A stretch of DNA of 64,000 bases from a virus (lineage: Duplodnaviria; Caudoviricetes): positions 1 through 64,000 of the IMG/VR virus record IMGVR_UViG_3300028454_001166; one strand, written 5' to 3'. Each line of letters starts with the position of its first letter. The first letter of the stretch is position 1. Shown piece by piece: positions 3,629-11,900 of this stretch. The notes beneath the pieces were generated by a model. It searched no databases. It worked only from the letters and a program-made list of their open reading frames with translations, and was not told the origin of the DNA. Made by a program: the position numbers and the translations under genes.

Positions 3629-4034
3629 GGTCAAAGTCAGCATCACAGCCCCTGAGCTGTCCGAGGCGATAACGAGACTCGCCGCGGCGCTCGAAAAGCA
3701 TGGGATTTCCACGTTGCAGGATTCCATTGCGCAAAGCGCGGAACCTGTGAAAGCTCCGGAAGCACCCGCGCCGAAGACGGAGGCAACCCCGGAACCGGTA
3801 GCACCCGCCCCGGTGACGGAAACCGCTCCTGAGAAACCGAGCGTTACCTACACCCTTGACGAGCTGGGCCGGGCCGCGGCTCCGTTGGTAGATAACGGCA
3901 GGACCGCCGAGTTGATAGCCCTGCTCGAGACATTCGGTGTGAAAACGCTCATTGATCTGAAGGCATCGGACTATCCGGCGTTCGTTGCGGGATTAGCGGA
4001 TAGATTCGGCGTATCGGTTAGGGGGGCTGCGTAA
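3621..4034 (+). CDS. Conserved phage protein typically preceding DUF2800 (Pro/Ala linker, C-terminal helical domain)
   Basis: AGGAGG RBS; C-terminus LLETFGVKTLIDLKASDY; synteny. Confidence 0.75.
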   Translation: MIEVKVSITAPELSEAITRLAAALEKHGISTLQDSIAQSAEPVKAPEAPAPKTEATPEPVAPAPVTETAPEKPSVTYTLDELGRAAAPLVDNGRTAELIALLETFGVKTLIDLKASDYPAFVAGLADRFGVSVRGAA

Positions 4035-7928: not shown

Positions 7929-7937
7929 GCAACATGG

Positions 7938-8014
7938 GCTGGTGTAGCTCAATTTGGCAGAGCGGGCGTCTTGTAATCGTCAGGTTTTTGCGGGTTCGAT
8001 TCCCGCCGCCAGCT
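7938..8014 (+). tRNA. tRNA-Thr(TGT), slightly atypical
   Basis: Cloverleaf GCTGGTG/CGCCAGC, loop CT-TGT-AA, T-loop TTCGATT; 8-nt variable region; no encoded CCA. Confidence 0.8.
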
Positions 8015-8017
8015 TTT

Positions 8018-8107
8018 GCCGGGGTAGCATAGTGGCCGAATGCGGCGGGCCTGAACCCCGTAGAGTGCTCGACAGAGGCTCCGTGAGTTCGAATCTCACC
8101 CCCGGCG
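8018..8107 (+). tRNA. tRNA-Ser(TGA), long variable arm, C33
   Basis: GCCGGGG/CCCCGGC acceptor, loop CC-TGA-AC, long V-arm, G73. Confidence 0.75.
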
Positions 8108-8109
8108 TC

Positions 8110-8242
8110 TTCCGGAGAAATCCGGTCGGTGCGGAGTGTCCGCGCAGCGATACCGAAATCGTGTCTTAAGCGGTGAACCGAAAATACTGTCCGGTATGAT
8201 TGGCTCGCATAGCAACCGATTAGGGCGCACAAAAATCGCTTC
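8110..8242 (+). ncRNA. Putative structured intergenic RNA
   Basis: CCGGA-GAAA-TCCGG hairpin, AGCGAT/ATCGCT and GTGTCTTAA/TTAGGGCGC nested stems. Confidence 0.35.
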
Positions 8243-8245
8243 TAT

Positions 8246-8319
8246 TCAGCCGTAGCTTTAGTAGGTCAGAGCACCGGGCCGTTAGCCCGGAGGATGCGGT
8301 TCGATTCCGCACAGCTGGC
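8246..8319 (+). tRNA. tRNA-Asn(GTT)-like, degenerate
   Basis: CCGGG-CC GTT AG-CCCGG anticodon arm, TTCGATT T-loop; C33 and acceptor mismatch. Confidence 0.65.
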
Positions 8320-8408
8320 CCTCTCTGGTATGCAGGGGGACATAAACGCATACTCGGTCGTGATGCAGGGCTGTAACGCGGGAAGGCCAACCGTGTCTGC
8401 ATCAACAA

Positions 8409-8481
8409 GGGACGTTACCTCAATTGGTAGAGACACCGGCTCATAACCGGTAAGTTGAAGGTTCGAGTCCTTCACGTCCCA
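8409..8481 (+). tRNA. tRNA-CAT (Ile2/lysidine type or elongator Met)
   Basis: GGGACGT/ACGTCCC-A, ACCGG-CT CAT AA-CCGGT, TTCGAGT. Confidence 0.85.
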
Positions 8482-8483
8482 TC

Positions 8484-8632
8484 GGCGAAGTGGCGGAAAA
8501 GGTAACGCTGATTTCACGGTGTCAAGAGGAATGCGAATAGGGGTTCGAGTCCCCCTGTCAACGGTGTTCGACTCCCGCTGGCGCATGGTGCAACAACATC
8601 CCCATGTGAGGTGCAAATCCTCACCTTCGCTG
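8484..8632 (+). ncRNA. tRNA-like RNA A (acceptor + D + T arms, ~95-nt insert instead of anticodon arm)
   Basis: GGCGAAG/CTTCGCT, TGGCGGAAAAGGTAACGC, GTGAGG-TGCAAAT-CCTCAC. Confidence 0.7.
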
Positions 8633-8637
8633 AAAAA

Positions 8638-8747
8638 TATGCGGTGGCGGAATAGGTAGACGCACATCCGGAGTTGAGCCTTTCATCGGTTAACGGTTGC
8701 TCAACTCAGAAAACCGATATGAGAGGTGCAAATCCTCTCCCGCATAA
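8638..8747 (+). ncRNA. tRNA-like RNA B
   Basis: TATGCGG/CCGCATA, TGGCGGAATAGGTAGACGC, GAGAGG-TGCAAAT-CCTCTC; insert with GAGTTGAGC/GCTCAACTC stem. Confidence 0.7.
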
Positions 8748-8752
8748 TCTGA

Positions 8753-8899
8753 ACTGGGGTGGCGGAATAGGTAGACGCAGAGACGGTCAGGTGACAGGGG
8801 TACGGATAAAAACGTAATCAGGTACTTCCCCTATGGGTTCGATTCCCTCCAATCCGGGCAGACGTCGGCCCATGTGAGGTGCAAATCCTCACCCCCGCC
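8753..8899 (+). ncRNA. tRNA-like RNA C
   Basis: TGGCGGAATAGGTAGACGC ... GTGAGG-TGCAAAT-CCTCAC; weaker acceptor stem. Confidence 0.65.
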
Positions 8900-8923
8900 T
8901 AAGTTGCAAAAATGGAGGAACAC

Positions 8924-9163
8924 ATGAATTTCAAGTGTAGTATAACAAGGCAGAAATGTCAAATCGATGATTTTGAATTTGACAATGTGTTATGCCCTTT
9001 TTATAAAAGTGGAAACTACCGGTACAAACCCACAGAAGGGAATTTCCATTACGATCCTTCCAAAGGCGAACAGAGAACGGTTTTCTGTTTTGATGATACT
9101 TGCAGGTTTTATGGGATAAAACGGTCAGAGGAAATCAAAGGCCGAGACTGGCTGGATAAATAA
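8924..9163 (+). CDS. Small Cys-rich hypothetical protein
   Basis: GGAGG RBS, ATG 8924; AT-rich ORF inside the tRNA island. Confidence 0.6.
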   Translation: MNFKCSITRQKCQIDDFEFDNVLCPFYKSGNYRYKPTEGNFHYDPSKGEQRTVFCFDDTCRFYGIKRSEEIKGRDWLDK

Positions 9164-9166
9164 TAT

Positions 9167-9239
9167 CGCGCGGTAGAGCAGAGGTCAGCTCGCCAGCTTC
9201 ATAAGCTGGAGGTCGCAGGTCCGAATCCTGCCCGCGCAA
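9167..9239 (+). tRNA. Initiator-like tRNA-Met(CAT)
   Basis: C1:A72 mismatch (CGCGCGG/CCGCGCA), CCAGC-TT CAT AA-GCTGG; lacks the 3 G-C anticodon-stem pairs; T-loop TCCGAAT. Confidence 0.8.
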
Positions 9240-9244
9240 TCAAA

Positions 9245-9535
9245 TTGATCCGGAAGCGATACAGGAGATACAGGATCGCCCATCTGGTCCGTTGCCATCA
9301 AAAGGGATGGAGGTAAATAGTTCCGTAGTCCTTACTGCGGAGCTTCCGTACAACGGCGTTATGACCCTACCGGCACGTAAGATCGGGGAACGTACATAGA
9401 GGGTTGATAATATACGACGGCTGGTTATAGAAGGTACGGAACGACGGTCCGCCAAGGGCTTTGTGCGAAGTCCGCGCTGGTGGCAACGTGCGTAGAAGCG
9501 ACTGTCGTTTTCGGGGAAGTCCTACCCGGCCCCAT
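9245..9535 (+). ncRNA. Putative ~290-nt structured ncRNA
   Basis: No credible ORF; TTCCGTAC/GTACGGAA, AACGACGGTC/GACTGTCGTT and several nested hairpins. Confidence 0.5.
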
Positions 9536-9554
9536 CTGAGAATGAGGAAAGAAA

Positions 9555-9986
9555 ATGAACACACTGAAAGTCGAAGCCCTACTTGCAAAGAAGTATGGCT
9601 ATAAACGTCTTCCCGGTGATTTGTCCGAAAAGTACCGGCAGTATTTTCATGAGAACATTCCGAGTTGGCTGAAGATTGAGGGAGAAACCAGACCTCTTTA
9701 TACCGTGAAGGGATCGAAAGTGTGCGATTTCTATGACAGGATCGTCATTGGAGATTACGGAGCGTTCATTGAGTTCTTTGCCGAACCGGAAGAAACGCAC
9801 TTCATTATCCAACCCGGTCAGGAATACAGGGTGAATGATCCGAGGTACAGCAACAACGTGAAGTATATCTGGATGACAGTTGATGATGGATCCGGAATCA
9901 AGATTTACAGACAGAGAAAAACCGTAACCTATGCAGACTACCTTCCGGACCGGTATTATGTGAGTGTGCATGAAGTAACGGCTTGA
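9555..9986 (+). CDS. Hypothetical phage protein
   Basis: 143-aa ORF with GAGG RBS; RIVIGDYGAFIEF motif. Confidence 0.75.
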   Translation: MNTLKVEALLAKKYGYKRLPGDLSEKYRQYFHENIPSWLKIEGETRPLYTVKGSKVCDFYDRIVIGDYGAFIEFFAEPEETHFIIQPGQEYRVNDPRYSNNVKYIWMTVDDGSGIKIYRQRKTVTYADYLPDRYYVSVHEVTA

Positions 9987-9991
9987 AATTC

Positions 9992-10010
9992 GGGGGATTA
10001 GCGTAATGGT
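9992..10010 (+). pseudogene. Orphaned original 5' end of tRNA-Gln
   Basis: GGGGGAT-TA-GCGT-AATGGT pairs with ATCCCCT at 10813-10819. Confidence 0.7.
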
Positions 10011-10764
10011 TGGAATTTATAAATTCACAAATGTAATTGATGGTAAGTCTTATATTGGAAAAAGCAAAAATATAACCAGAAGATATAATCACCATAAGCG
10101 TTTGGCTGGCGGTGAAGCAGATGGCTTTAATCTATATGTAGACTCTGTTATGCGAGAAGTGGGATTCCATAATTTTGAGTTTATGGTACTTGAAGAGTGC
10201 CATCCAGAAGAACTCGATGAGAAGGAAAAATATTATATAAAAAAGTTTAACACCTTAATTCCGAACGGATACAATATAAGTTTTGGGGGAAGAGGAGGAA
10301 GGTTTCAATCCATAAAATCATTTGAAGAAATAAAAGAAATCCAGAGGTTATTGAGCGATACAGTTTTATCGGAAGCAGAGATAGGGCGGAAATTTGGGGT
10401 TACAGATGTTACTATTTCATATATAAATGTTGGAAAAATATGGAAAAACGAAAATGTGAGTTATCCAATAAGAACCTTAAGCCTAAATCGTATAATCACT
10501 CCGGTACATTGTGAACGATGCGGGAAAGCAATACATAAAAGAAATAAATTCCATTTATGCCAGAGCTGTTATTCAAAAAAGAAAGGCGAGCACATTCCGC
10601 CGAAAGAGTTGTTATTTGAGGAACTGATGGGATCAAGTTTTGAAGCGGTCGGTAGAAAATATGGTGTGACGGGAAACGCTGTAAAAAAATGGTGCGAGAA
10701 GTATGGTTTACCGAATCACGCCTATGAATATCGAAAACTACGAGATTTGAGGGATAAACATTAA
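10006..10764 (+). CDS. Free-standing GIY-YIG homing endonuclease
   Basis: GIYKFTN...YIGKS...RR, E..YI..FNT..PNGYNI; C-terminal HTH and CxxC..CxxC; AT-rich. Confidence 0.9.
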   Translation: MVGIYKFTNVIDGKSYIGKSKNITRRYNHHKRLAGGEADGFNLYVDSVMREVGFHNFEFMVLEECHPEELDEKEKYYIKKFNTLIPNGYNISFGGRGGRFQSIKSFEEIKEIQRLLSDTVLSEAEIGRKFGVTDVTISYINVGKIWKNENVSYPIRTLSLNRIITPVHCERCGKAIHKRNKFHLCQSCYSKKKGEHIPPKELLFEELMGSSFEAVGRKYGVTGNAVKKWCEKYGLPNHAYEYRKLRDLRDKH

Positions 10765-10820
10765 TGGTAATGTGCATGACTTTGAATCATGAAAAGAAGG
10801 TTCGATTCCTTCATCCCCTG
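10749..10820 (+). tRNA. tRNA-Gln(TTG), 5' half supplied by the end of the GIY-YIG ORF
   Basis: GAGGGAT-AA-ACAT-TAATGGTA-ATGT-G-CATGA-CT TTG AA-TCATG-AAAA-GAAGG-TTCGATT-CCTTC-ATCCCCT-G. Confidence 0.75.
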
Positions 10821-10856
10821 TTTAACTTGCAACCAACTTGCAACTAACTTGCAACC

Positions 10857-11105
10857 TTGAAAGGGGGTGATCCTACTGTGGACGGAGCAGGTAACGAGTT
10901 TCCGTTGACTATATCGCCGCCCGGAATTGATGAAATCATCGAATCTCTAAAGGGAGTAGGGATTGAAGTTGTTCCGGGCGAATCAACAGAGTATGTTATC
11001 GCTGAAGAACCGGATGGTAAGCGGTACAAACTTCCGAAGGATTTCAATATCTTCACGAATCCGATTAAGATTCCGATTGAAGAAAATGGAGGTGGGAAGA
11101 TATGA
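10857..11105 (+). CDS. Hypothetical protein (start uncertain)
   Basis: ORF overlapping the start of the next gene. Confidence 0.45.
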   Translation: MKGGDPTVDGAGNEFPLTISPPGIDEIIESLKGVGIEVVPGESTEYVIAEEPDGKRYKLPKDFNIFTNPIKIPIEENGGGKI

Positions 11106-11539
11106 TCTATACAGAGATTAAGGAAGACCTGTTTGAGGTTCCGGATCATTATTATTTAGCGCATTGTATTAACGGCAACTATACGCTTGGCGCAGGAATC
11201 GCAAGATCATTCGCCGATAGAATGAACATGAGGTATCATCTTGTGTCACAGTATCCGATTAAGGCCGGGGAACAGTATAAGTATATTGGAAAAGCTCTTC
11301 TTGTGGGACGTGTATTTAATCTTGTTACAAAAGCATTCCATTATAACAAGCCAACCTATGAATCGCTCCGATCTGCATTGAATGATATGCACGATCAATG
11401 TGAGGAACTTGGAATCAAGTATCTTGCCATGCCAAAGATTGGTTGCGGCCTTGACAGGCTCGATTGGAGCAAGGTGGGCGTGATGATCCGAGAAATCTTC
11501 AGTGATTTGGATATTGAAATTCTGGTGTGTTATATATAA
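11102..11539 (+). CDS. Macrodomain protein (Poa1p/TARG1/DarG-like ADP-ribose hydrolase)
   Basis: LAHCI...LGAGIA..F, FNLVTK, LAMPKIGCGLDRLDW. Confidence 0.85.
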   Translation: MIYTEIKEDLFEVPDHYYLAHCINGNYTLGAGIARSFADRMNMRYHLVSQYPIKAGEQYKYIGKALLVGRVFNLVTKAFHYNKPTYESLRSALNDMHDQCEELGIKYLAMPKIGCGLDRLDWSKVGVMIREIFSDLDIEILVCYI

Positions 11540-11555
11540 GCGAATAATATGTGGT

Positions 11556-11656
11556 GTATGCCCATGCCGAAAAGCGACGATAGTTGCCGGAGAATCGATC
11601 AACCCGACAGAGAAAAGGCGGCATACGTTTACTGAGCGTGAGGGGGACTCAGTAAG
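11556..11656 (+). ncRNA. Putative structured intergenic RNA
   Basis: GTATGCC/GGCATAC closing a multi-stem junction, then TTACTGAG/CTCAGTAA hairpin. Confidence 0.35.
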
Positions 11657-11667
11657 CTAAAGAAATC

Positions 11668-11817
11668 ATGACATACTATACAAAACGCTATTTTCTCGGA
11701 ATACCTATATATTCTGTGATTCATTATCCTCGAAAATGTGTAATAACTTTCTTCGATAAATTTTTGATGGAACACGGAATTGATGTTCCCGAAGAATATG
11801 AACCGTGGATGAGTTAA
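11668..11817 (+). CDS. Small hypothetical protein (49 aa)
   Basis: MTYYTKRYFLGIPIY...; weak RBS; followed by 12-bp inverted repeat. Confidence 0.35.
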   Translation: MTYYTKRYFLGIPIYSVIHYPRKCVITFFDKFLMEHGIDVPEEYEPWMS

Positions 11818-11900
11818 AAAATCTTTAATTACATCCGGGATGACTGGCTGTAATTAAAGAAAAAGACCGATTTCTTTAATTAAGATGAAAGGTGAACCAC

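Follow-up and report, generated by a model that had tools for sequence, protein, structure and literature searches.

The 64,000-nucleotide (nt) stretch of viral DNA analysed here (the window; positions 1 to 64,000 of IMG/VR record IMGVR_UViG_3300028454_001166) contains a glutamine transfer RNA (tRNA-Gln) gene that is interrupted in its D-loop by an intron-less GIY-YIG homing endonuclease gene. The original 5′ end of the tRNA gene is stranded upstream of the endonuclease open reading frame (ORF), and a complete tRNA-Gln(UUG) sequence begins within the last codons of that ORF. We consider it probable that a SegB-like tRNA-array endonuclease cassette, made up of the endonuclease gene and the front of a tRNA-Gln gene, invaded a resident tRNA-Gln gene by one-sided repair. 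This is a natural example of a known way of gene invasion and not a new mechanism. New relative to the published work that we found are a tRNA gene split in its D-loop, a tRNA 5′ end used as the patch and a protein frame that lies over the tRNA for 16 nt here and would do so for ~44 nt in a sister allele.

Reading of the sequence from 9800 to 11000 established the anatomy of the locus (Table 1). Positions 9992-10010 read GGGGGAT-TA-GCGT-AATGGT, and the heptamer TAATGGT occurs at both ends of the ORF, with the start codon ATG (10006-10008) inside the left copy and the stop codon TAA (10762-10764) inside the right copy. The final codons of the ORF, TTG AGG GAT AAA CAT TAA, encode LRDKH and a stop. 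Downstream of the right TAATGGT follow, in order, the 3′ strand of the D-stem, the anticodon arm with the loop CTTTGAA (anticodon UUG), a 4-nt variable loop, the T arm and the acceptor 3′ strand ATCCCCT, and the tRNA-Gln ends at 10820. The TAATGGT repeat alone is within chance expectation (25 direct-repeat families of at least 7 nt occur in the same 911 AT-rich nt). The pairing of the ORF tail is beyond chance: 16 of 127,974 window 13-mers (1.25e-4 per position) pair with at least 6/7 of the acceptor 3′ strand and 4/4 of the D-stem 3′ strand. The initial annotation, made from the letters of the window, had described a GIY-YIG ORF that starts in one TAATGGT and stops in the other, without intron structure; a 5′ end stranded upstream; and last codons that rebuild the 5′ half of a complete tRNA-Gln(UUG). 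All of this agrees with our results.

An empty version of the site is present in L005, a 100-kb viral contig in which an uninterrupted tRNA-Gln(ttg) (57.6 Rfam bits) lies 7 nt after the orthologue of the window ORF at 9555-9986. The endonuclease gene is missing from this homologous locus and the tRNA-Gln is intact there, which establishes a presence/absence polymorphism and supplies the related phage with an unbroken tRNA-Gln that the initial annotation had named as a check. In blastn comparisons, homology between the window and L005 extends up to 10010 at 85% identity and restarts at 10795 at 92% identity. The unmatched segment between these points (10011-10794) has a G+C content (GC) of 0.355, versus 0.48 and 0.42 in its flanks. 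When the stranded fragment is joined in silico to the downstream part (9992-10010 plus 10769-10820), the product matches the L005 tRNA at 16 of 20 sites across positions 1-21, at 10 of 26 across positions 22-48 and at 23 of 25 from the T arm to the 3′ end. Because L005 homology resumes only at 10795, it is probable that the low-GC foreign DNA comprises not only the endonuclease gene but also the tRNA's D-stem 3′ strand, anticodon arm and variable loop. Base pairing fits this view of the D-stem: ACAT of the incoming segment is fully complementary to ATGT downstream, whereas with GCGT of the stranded fragment two of the pairs would have to be G.U.

Table 1. Coordinates of the interrupted tRNA-Gln locus in the window.
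Feature	Position	Strand	Basis or remark
Upstream phage ORF, 143 amino acids, no family	9555..9986	+	Synteny anchor to the empty-site relative L005; 87% identical protein there
Stranded resident tRNA-Gln 5′ fragment, 19 nt	9992..10010	+	Alignable to nt 1-19 of the unbroken tRNA-Gln in L005
Parts of the stranded fragment: acceptor 5′ strand GGGGGAT, U8 A9, D-stem GCGT, beginning of D-loop	9992..10010	+	
Left TAATGGT; D-loop sequence, left junction, holds the ORF start codon	10004..10010	+	L005 homology stops at 10010
Free-standing GIY-YIG homing endonuclease gene, 252 amino acids	10006..10764	+	Pfam, PHROG, I-TevI alignment, AF2 model
Segment with no counterpart in the empty allele: endonuclease gene and, probably, the 5′ two-thirds of another, AT-rich tRNA-Gln	10011..10794 (right edge alternatively 10768)	+	blastn against L005, GC
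Complete, putatively chimeric tRNA-Gln(UUG); 5′ part would travel with the endonuclease gene, T arm and 3′ acceptor strand resident-like	10749..10820	+	Rfam, minimum free energy cloverleaf
16-nt overlap: last ORF codons (LRDKH and stop) are tRNA positions 1-16	10749..10764	+	
Right TAATGGT; D-loop of the putative incoming tRNA, holds the TAA stop	10762..10768	+	Extra T (10761/10762) that makes the stop appears to be missing in allele P0121
T arm, 3′ acceptor strand, discriminator; L005 homology restarts	10795..10820	+	10795-10910 is 92% identical to L005:4483-4598

The rebuilt tRNA is recognizable as a full-length molecule. Rfam RF00005 matches 10750-10820 across model positions 1-71 with 46 bits against a gathering score of 29, which falls within the 40-64 bits of the other phage tRNAs of the window. 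The minimum free energy fold is a cloverleaf for both the contiguous sequence (10749-10820) and the joined version, which we assessed with ARAGORN and ViennaRNA, and the T arm, anticodon loop and D-stem of the contiguous tRNA are intact. Several of its features are atypical, namely A8, U14, an 8-nt D-loop and an A2xC71 mismatch. The sequence at 10749/50-10820 thus departs from a canonical elongator tRNA, which would have U8, A14, a fully paired acceptor stem and a default ARAGORN call. The joined version is called tRNA-Gln(ttg) by ARAGORN with default settings. For annotation purposes, the stranded 5′ fragment could be mistaken for an intron boundary, and ARAGORN misses the rebuilt tRNA.

Comparison of alleles suggests how the ORF came to end inside a tRNA. 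Across the endonuclease family, the C-terminal stretch after the conserved YYR motif differs between proteins in both length and sequence. The closest allele, P0121 (261 amino acids, seven substitutions, 97% identity, same 90% cluster), is encoded on a 44.9-kb contig and ends in ...LGDKHNGNVHDFES, and removal of one T at 10761/10762 from the window sequence gives the translation LRDKHNGNVHDFES, each followed by a stop. Because the translation of the T-deleted window matches the P0121 tail, the P0121 locus seems to hold the same tRNA sequence minus one T, and the R249G substitution in P0121 fits a change from AGG to GGG. Read in this way, the P0121 tRNA 5′ half would be GGGGGAT-AA-ACAT-AATGGTA, with 7/7 pairs in the acceptor stem, A14, a 7-nt D-loop and only A8 unusual. 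The P0121 ORF would run ~44 nt into the tRNA and end in the anticodon stem (equivalent of 10792), nine codons beyond the end of the window ORF. The more distant proteins P0002 and P0003 (65% identity) end in ...KGD, and a terminal GD followed by a stop would fit GGG GAT TAR, with the stop formed by U8-A9-R10 of an abutting tRNA-Gln. The association between this endonuclease and tRNA-Gln appears, on these tails, to predate the insertion in the window. Since the C-termini vary and the overlap apparently differs in length between alleles, the tail would be free of protein constraint, and we interpret it as tRNA sequence into which the frame reads and not as a conserved protein end.

These comparisons also suggest the direction of change in the window tRNA. 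With P0121, P0002 and P0003 as reference, A2, which is mismatched to C71, is to be read as derived, and the extra T responsible for U14 and for the TAA stop is probably derived as well. The window tRNA-Gln may therefore be weakened or decaying, and we rate the chance that it is functional at a little short of even.

The endonuclease gene itself looks intact, as judged from a full set of I-TevI catalytic residues and a matching predicted fold. ORF 10006-10764 matches the Pfam GIY-YIG family (PF01541) at 1.2e-10 and is a homing endonuclease by PHROG. Its GIY (residues 3-5), YIG (16-18), R26, H30, E74 and N90 align with GIY, YVG, R27, H31, E75 and N90 of I-TevI. An AlphaFold2 (AF2) model (predicted local distance difference test score, pLDDT, 87) places the N-terminal domain on the I-TevI catalytic domain 1ln0_A (E 8.8e-6, target template modelling score 0.83, root-mean-square deviation 2.3); the I-TevI DNA-binding domain had no significant structural match to the model. 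From the N-terminus, the predicted domains are an I-TevI-like catalytic domain, a linker, a helix-turn-helix (HTH), a zinc ribbon (CxxC...CxxC) and another HTH at the C-terminus. The model has a low-pLDDT linker at residues 93-101 and helical modules at 106-141 and 186-251, and in the homologue alignment C169 and C188 are invariant and C172 and C185 nearly so. A protein search found 169 homologues, and records of the identical protein exist for 4 contigs of several origins. Upstream, 9 nt separate the G-run of the stranded fragment (9992-9996) from the ATG. This run is similar to the ribosome-binding sequence AAAGGAG found in relatives, and the scar may provide the endonuclease gene with a Shine-Dalgarno-like site.

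SegB of T-even phages was considered as an orthologue of the window endonuclease. The two proteins are 30% identical over 97 amino acids in BLASTP (E 5e-5), and this candidate was rejected because the similarity is confined to the catalytic domain and does not extend over the whole protein.

Relatives of the endonuclease show a consistent habit of residing next to tRNA genes. Their loci (up to 47% identity) come from rumen and gut viral and metagenomic contigs. Nearly all of the 24 full-length loci are in tRNA arrays with the endonuclease gene on the tRNA strand, typically 0-23 nt upstream of a tRNA. In half of them (12/24) the gene precedes tRNA-Thr(tgt) by 7-19 nt; in others it precedes tRNA-Pro, in one tRNA-Ile (3 nt apart) and in one tRNA-Gly (0 nt apart). 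Enterococcus phage phiSHEF13 has a homologue that likewise lies within a tRNA cluster. Several of these loci contain displaced or duplicated pieces of tRNA. The closest parallel to the window is L021, in which tRNA-Thr positions 1-23 are stranded (1273-1295) 16 nt before the ATG. L013 carries a duplicated tRNA-Pro T arm beside the endonuclease relative (2938-2957), and in L084 a T arm directly follows the endonuclease stop (3755-3769). The relative P0123 can be placed in a tRNA array because its N-terminal extension reads through a tRNA T arm (WVRVP, TGG GTT CGA GTC CC).

Searches for closer matches to the locus returned little. No match was found in a blastn search of 9300-11600 against GenBank phages, and exact-pattern scans of viral contigs for the tRNA 3′ part and the D/anticodon part found nothing. 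A 19-mer of the anticodon arm had one match, in an unrelated tRNA-like sequence of L163. Neither the neighbouring ORF nor the endonuclease was found in 200 same-family or 400 same-order genomes, and scans of metagenome and genome contigs yielded no relative closer than 47% identity, the 65% relative P0003 not being among them.

Inspection of the relatives' loci also led to the identification of RNA features that are of interest in their own right. Relatives linked to tRNA-Thr share a conserved ~60-nt leader upstream of the ATG (...AGGACAAGGAGTAGCT...GATTACTG...). The leader alignment comprises L012:2893-3003, L014:2164-2273, L016:2894-3003, L017:805-914 and six more sequences. RNAalifold predicts a three-way junction with compensatory changes in 12 of 16 pairs, and Rfam holds no family for this leader. 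This leader could act as a regulatory RNA for the nuclease genes. Five loci contain, in the interval from the endonuclease stop to tRNA-Thr, a tetraloop hairpin of the form GCCC-GAAA-GGGC or ACCC-GCAA-GGGT (L011:950-967, L012:3757-3774, L014:3075-3093, L016:3781-3798 and L017:1653-1670), which may protect the 3′ end of the mRNA after RNase P cleavage; the window has no such tetraloop hairpin between the endonuclease stop and the tRNA. L013 additionally contains, at ~2831-2962, a tRNA-like gene with matching acceptor strands and a T arm and with a ~70-nt insert between the anticodon region and the T arm, which ARAGORN does not call.

The history that we favour begins with a donor in which the endonuclease gene abutted or overlapped a tRNA-Gln(UUG) gene. 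In the prophage lineage, the enzyme would have cut the resident tRNA-Gln, and one-sided homing would have used the donor as repair template. Homology within the tRNA would have guided repair on the right side, with a crossover no further along than the T arm. On the left side, for lack of homology, the ends would have been joined at TAATGGT, a microhomology that the D-loop of the resident tRNA has in common with the beginning of the endonuclease gene. Three products would result: a 19-nt scar of the resident 5′ end, whose G-run and ATG now presumably act as ribosome-binding site and start codon; an intact endonuclease gene; and a chimeric, complete tRNA-Gln whose 5′ part arrived with the endonuclease. 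An ORF without a stop of its own would read into the tRNA as far as the first in-frame stop, here the D-loop TAA, and the dual coding would be passive because the ORF merely reads into the tRNA until it meets a stop. Should RNase P process the tRNA, it would strip the stop codon from the endonuclease mRNA, a consequence that the initial annotation had drawn for tRNA processing, and would keep nuclease levels low.

The overlap could instead be functional, though we regard this as doubtful. The family would then invade tRNA genes with no need of an intron, since the carried tRNA patch would both restore the tRNA and destroy the enzyme's own target, and the RNase P cut ahead of the stop codon would generate a non-stop nuclease message. 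If this were true, each transcript could yield either the tRNA or the nuclease but not both, a constraint that would hold a toxic nuclease in check.

Several observations weigh against an invasion by one-sided repair that delivered a working tRNA front. ARAGORN calls no tRNA at 10749-10820 by default and does so only at a lowered threshold (-ps), and its peculiarities are rare in a set of 146 distinct phage tRNAs taken from the retrieved loci (A8 in 2%, U14 in 3%, an acceptor mismatch in 0%). The tRNA overlaps in P0121, P0002 and P0003 were read from protein tails only. Between the window and L005, the Met and Ser tRNA pairs likewise diverge chiefly in their D and anticodon arms, with no endonuclease involved, and because of this the resident tRNA-Gln may already have had the present anticodon arm. 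The right boundary is correspondingly uncertain between 10794 and 10768, the former being probable and not proven. Finally, a microhomology placed exactly on the start codon requires either luck or selection for an expressible gene.

The initial annotation had proposed a different history. The D-loop would have received the ORF alone, with a 7-bp target repeat on either side, and evolution or selection would have led the endonuclease to supply a replacement tRNA 5′ half in its last codons and so to mend its own target by dual coding. The position of the ATG and the TAA exactly within the two TAATGGT copies is what such an event would leave, and the reconstituted tRNA does pass Rfam with a tail pairing far beyond chance. 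An insert consisting purely of the ORF should, however, restore homology to the empty site at 10769 and not at 10795, and GIY-YIG enzymes cut with 2-nt overhangs and yield no 7-bp target duplications (PMC2330249). Nor does the tail behave as an evolved repair: it lacks protein constraint, its length differs between alleles, with the P0121 frame apparently reading nine codons further, and the family normally adjoins tRNAs, which makes the tRNA front a passenger and not an invention. We therefore consider this history unlikely. What remains of the proposal is an intron-less insertion into the D-loop, a stranded 5′ end and a tRNA that shares its first 15-16 nt with the ORF; the ORF-only insert and the evolved repair are not upheld. 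A somewhat less unlikely, though still doubtful, view is that the locus is a dead scar, in which the tRNA-Gln was destroyed, neither 5′ half works and what resembles a tRNA at the 3′ end of the ORF is a remnant in decay, of no consequence given the tRNA-Gln(UUG) of the host. The host genome does carry tRNA-Gln(ttg) and tRNA-Gln(ctg), and the four atypical features of the tRNA, with the apparently derived change of G2 to A relative to P0121, P0002 and P0003, point in this direction. Against decay stand a Rfam score in the range of its phage neighbours, the cloverleaf fold with its intact arms, and a sister allele, P0121, whose 5′ half would be near-canonical.

Splicing offers another way to obtain a tRNA from the locus, since the joined halves give the most canonical tRNA, with the 758-nt insert acting as a group I, group II or archaeal-type intron that joins 10010 to 10769. 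No intron family matches either strand of 9400-11400 at E values up to 10, including group I and group II, and a full-length protein gene fills the insert from end to end, leaving no room for a ribozyme core. Bacteria are not known to have a bulge-helix-bulge endonuclease. Group I introns of bacterial tRNA genes lie in the anticodon loop (PMC3984707). We rejected the group I, group II and archaeal-type readings on the lack of any intron family match in 9400-11400, and consider splicing highly improbable. An assembly chimera or metagenomic misjoin might be suspected in a genome that is a 128-contig draft, but the identical protein on 4 contigs from several sources, the 97% allele on a separate 44.9-kb contig, and junctions that lie within a 543-kb contig with syntenic flanks leave this explanation with almost no likelihood.

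One-sided repair of a tRNA gene finds precedents in several systems, each of which differs from the window in some respect. SegB cuts tRNA genes and drives co-conversion of their flanks (PMC2330249), and SegB homologues are enriched near tRNAs, with microhomology between the 3′ end of T6 segB and the 5′ terminus of tRNA-Tyr underlying rearrangements (PMC13096335). The window gene has in common with segB of T4 and T6 that it encodes a GIY-YIG nuclease within an array of phage tRNA genes, shares their strand and closely precedes one of them; in T4, 5 nt separate the segB stop from tRNA-Arg. Both genes also show presence/absence variation among related phages. Unlike SegB, to which it has ~30% similarity in the catalytic domain only and whose DNA-binding modules differ, the window endonuclease does not sit between intact tRNAs: it splits a tRNA gene, with a 5′ scar remaining, and its ORF has 16 nt in common with the tRNA (~44 nt, as it would seem, in the sister allele). 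The host element here is a temperate gut phage, whereas that of SegB is a T-even phage. With I-TevI of the T4 td gene the window endonuclease shares the catalytic fold and residues and, it would seem, a modular build of catalytic domain, flexible linker, zinc finger and HTH, but I-TevI is encoded in a self-splicing group I intron and the window gene has no intron.

Analogies for the layout come from gene invasions elsewhere. Mobile ORFs of fungal mitochondria arrive with a substitute for one end of the invaded gene and push the original end aside (PMC3630166), and the resulting hybrids (Allomyces atp6; Glomus atp6, atp9, cox2 and nad3) combine an ORF, a foreign replacement segment and a displaced native scar that duplicates it, with the ORF in some cases in frame with the host gene (PMC3630166). 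The same layout is present in the window as the scar at 9992-10010, the ORF and the replacement 5′ half at 10749-10768 (possibly to 10794). The fungal hybrids replace the 3′ (C-terminal) ends of protein genes, whereas here the 5′ end of a phage tRNA gene is replaced and a protein frame overlaps an RNA gene. One-sided illegitimate repair of double-strand breaks at microhomologies has been described (Parker 1999, reviewed in PMC2988022). The window resembles it in having homology on one side only, junctions at short microhomology and an ectopic invasion; it was shown experimentally for the td intron and is suggested here by a natural product. Intron-less endonuclease genes inside functional genes are also known from Aeh1 nrdA/mobE and T4 gene 39/60 mobA (PMC2988022). 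In Aeh1 nrdA and T4 gene 39/60 both halves are expressed and reassemble as a protein, whereas here one half would be replaced by a carried copy.

L005 and the window thus provide a natural before-and-after pair in which an intron-less homing endonuclease seems to have entered an essential-type RNA gene without killing it, by way of a replacement gene end. These observations extend the SegB theme of tRNA-array endonucleases, recently linked to anti-defence tRNA amplification, to temperate gut and rumen phages and to an I-TevI-like family. The overlap of 16 to ~44 nt also makes a regulatory idea testable, in which RNase P processing would compete with translation of the nuclease.

The surroundings of the locus are mosaic at further points. 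Five tRNAs are called elsewhere in the window by default ARAGORN (7937-9241, upstream of the endonuclease gene), and the array is highly variable between the two phages, with tRNA-Asn(gtt) in the window where L005 has tRNA-Ile(tat) and with ~775 extra nt in L005 (3198-3972, including tRNA-Leu(caa) at 3851-3934) near window positions 9526-9540. A second mosaic point lies directly beside the endonuclease, at 10911-11823, where ~900 nt are missing from L005. This segment holds a Macro-domain ORF (11102-11539; Pfam 1.3e-7; PHROG 335), and a short L005 ORF that starts at the equivalent of 10857 is interrupted by a stop codon.

The window is set in a low-GC island (~0.52 versus ~0.60) in a 543-kb contig of a 4.3-Mb, 128-contig draft genome. 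Three listed genomes of the same genus are ~1.9-2.3 Mb in size; the assembly could represent a strain of exceptional size or a bin of mixed origin. A search for an attachment-site repeat between the integrase end and the far end of the prophage at the host tRNA-Gln(ttg) (C45 339211-339283) found none, and this idea was dropped. An imperfect 16-nt direct repeat (13/16, common TGTGCATGA) links the end of the upstream ORF (9958-9973) with the D/anticodon region of the tRNA (10764-10779). It is probably due to chance, as ~1.5 common 9-mers are expected for a region of this size. Directly after the tRNA-Gln, at 10823-10856, the window contains three tandem 11-nt copies of (T/C)AACTTGCAAC, which are conserved in L005 (4512-4545) and, being placed ahead of the next ORF, may serve as an operator or as an array of sites for a protein to bind.

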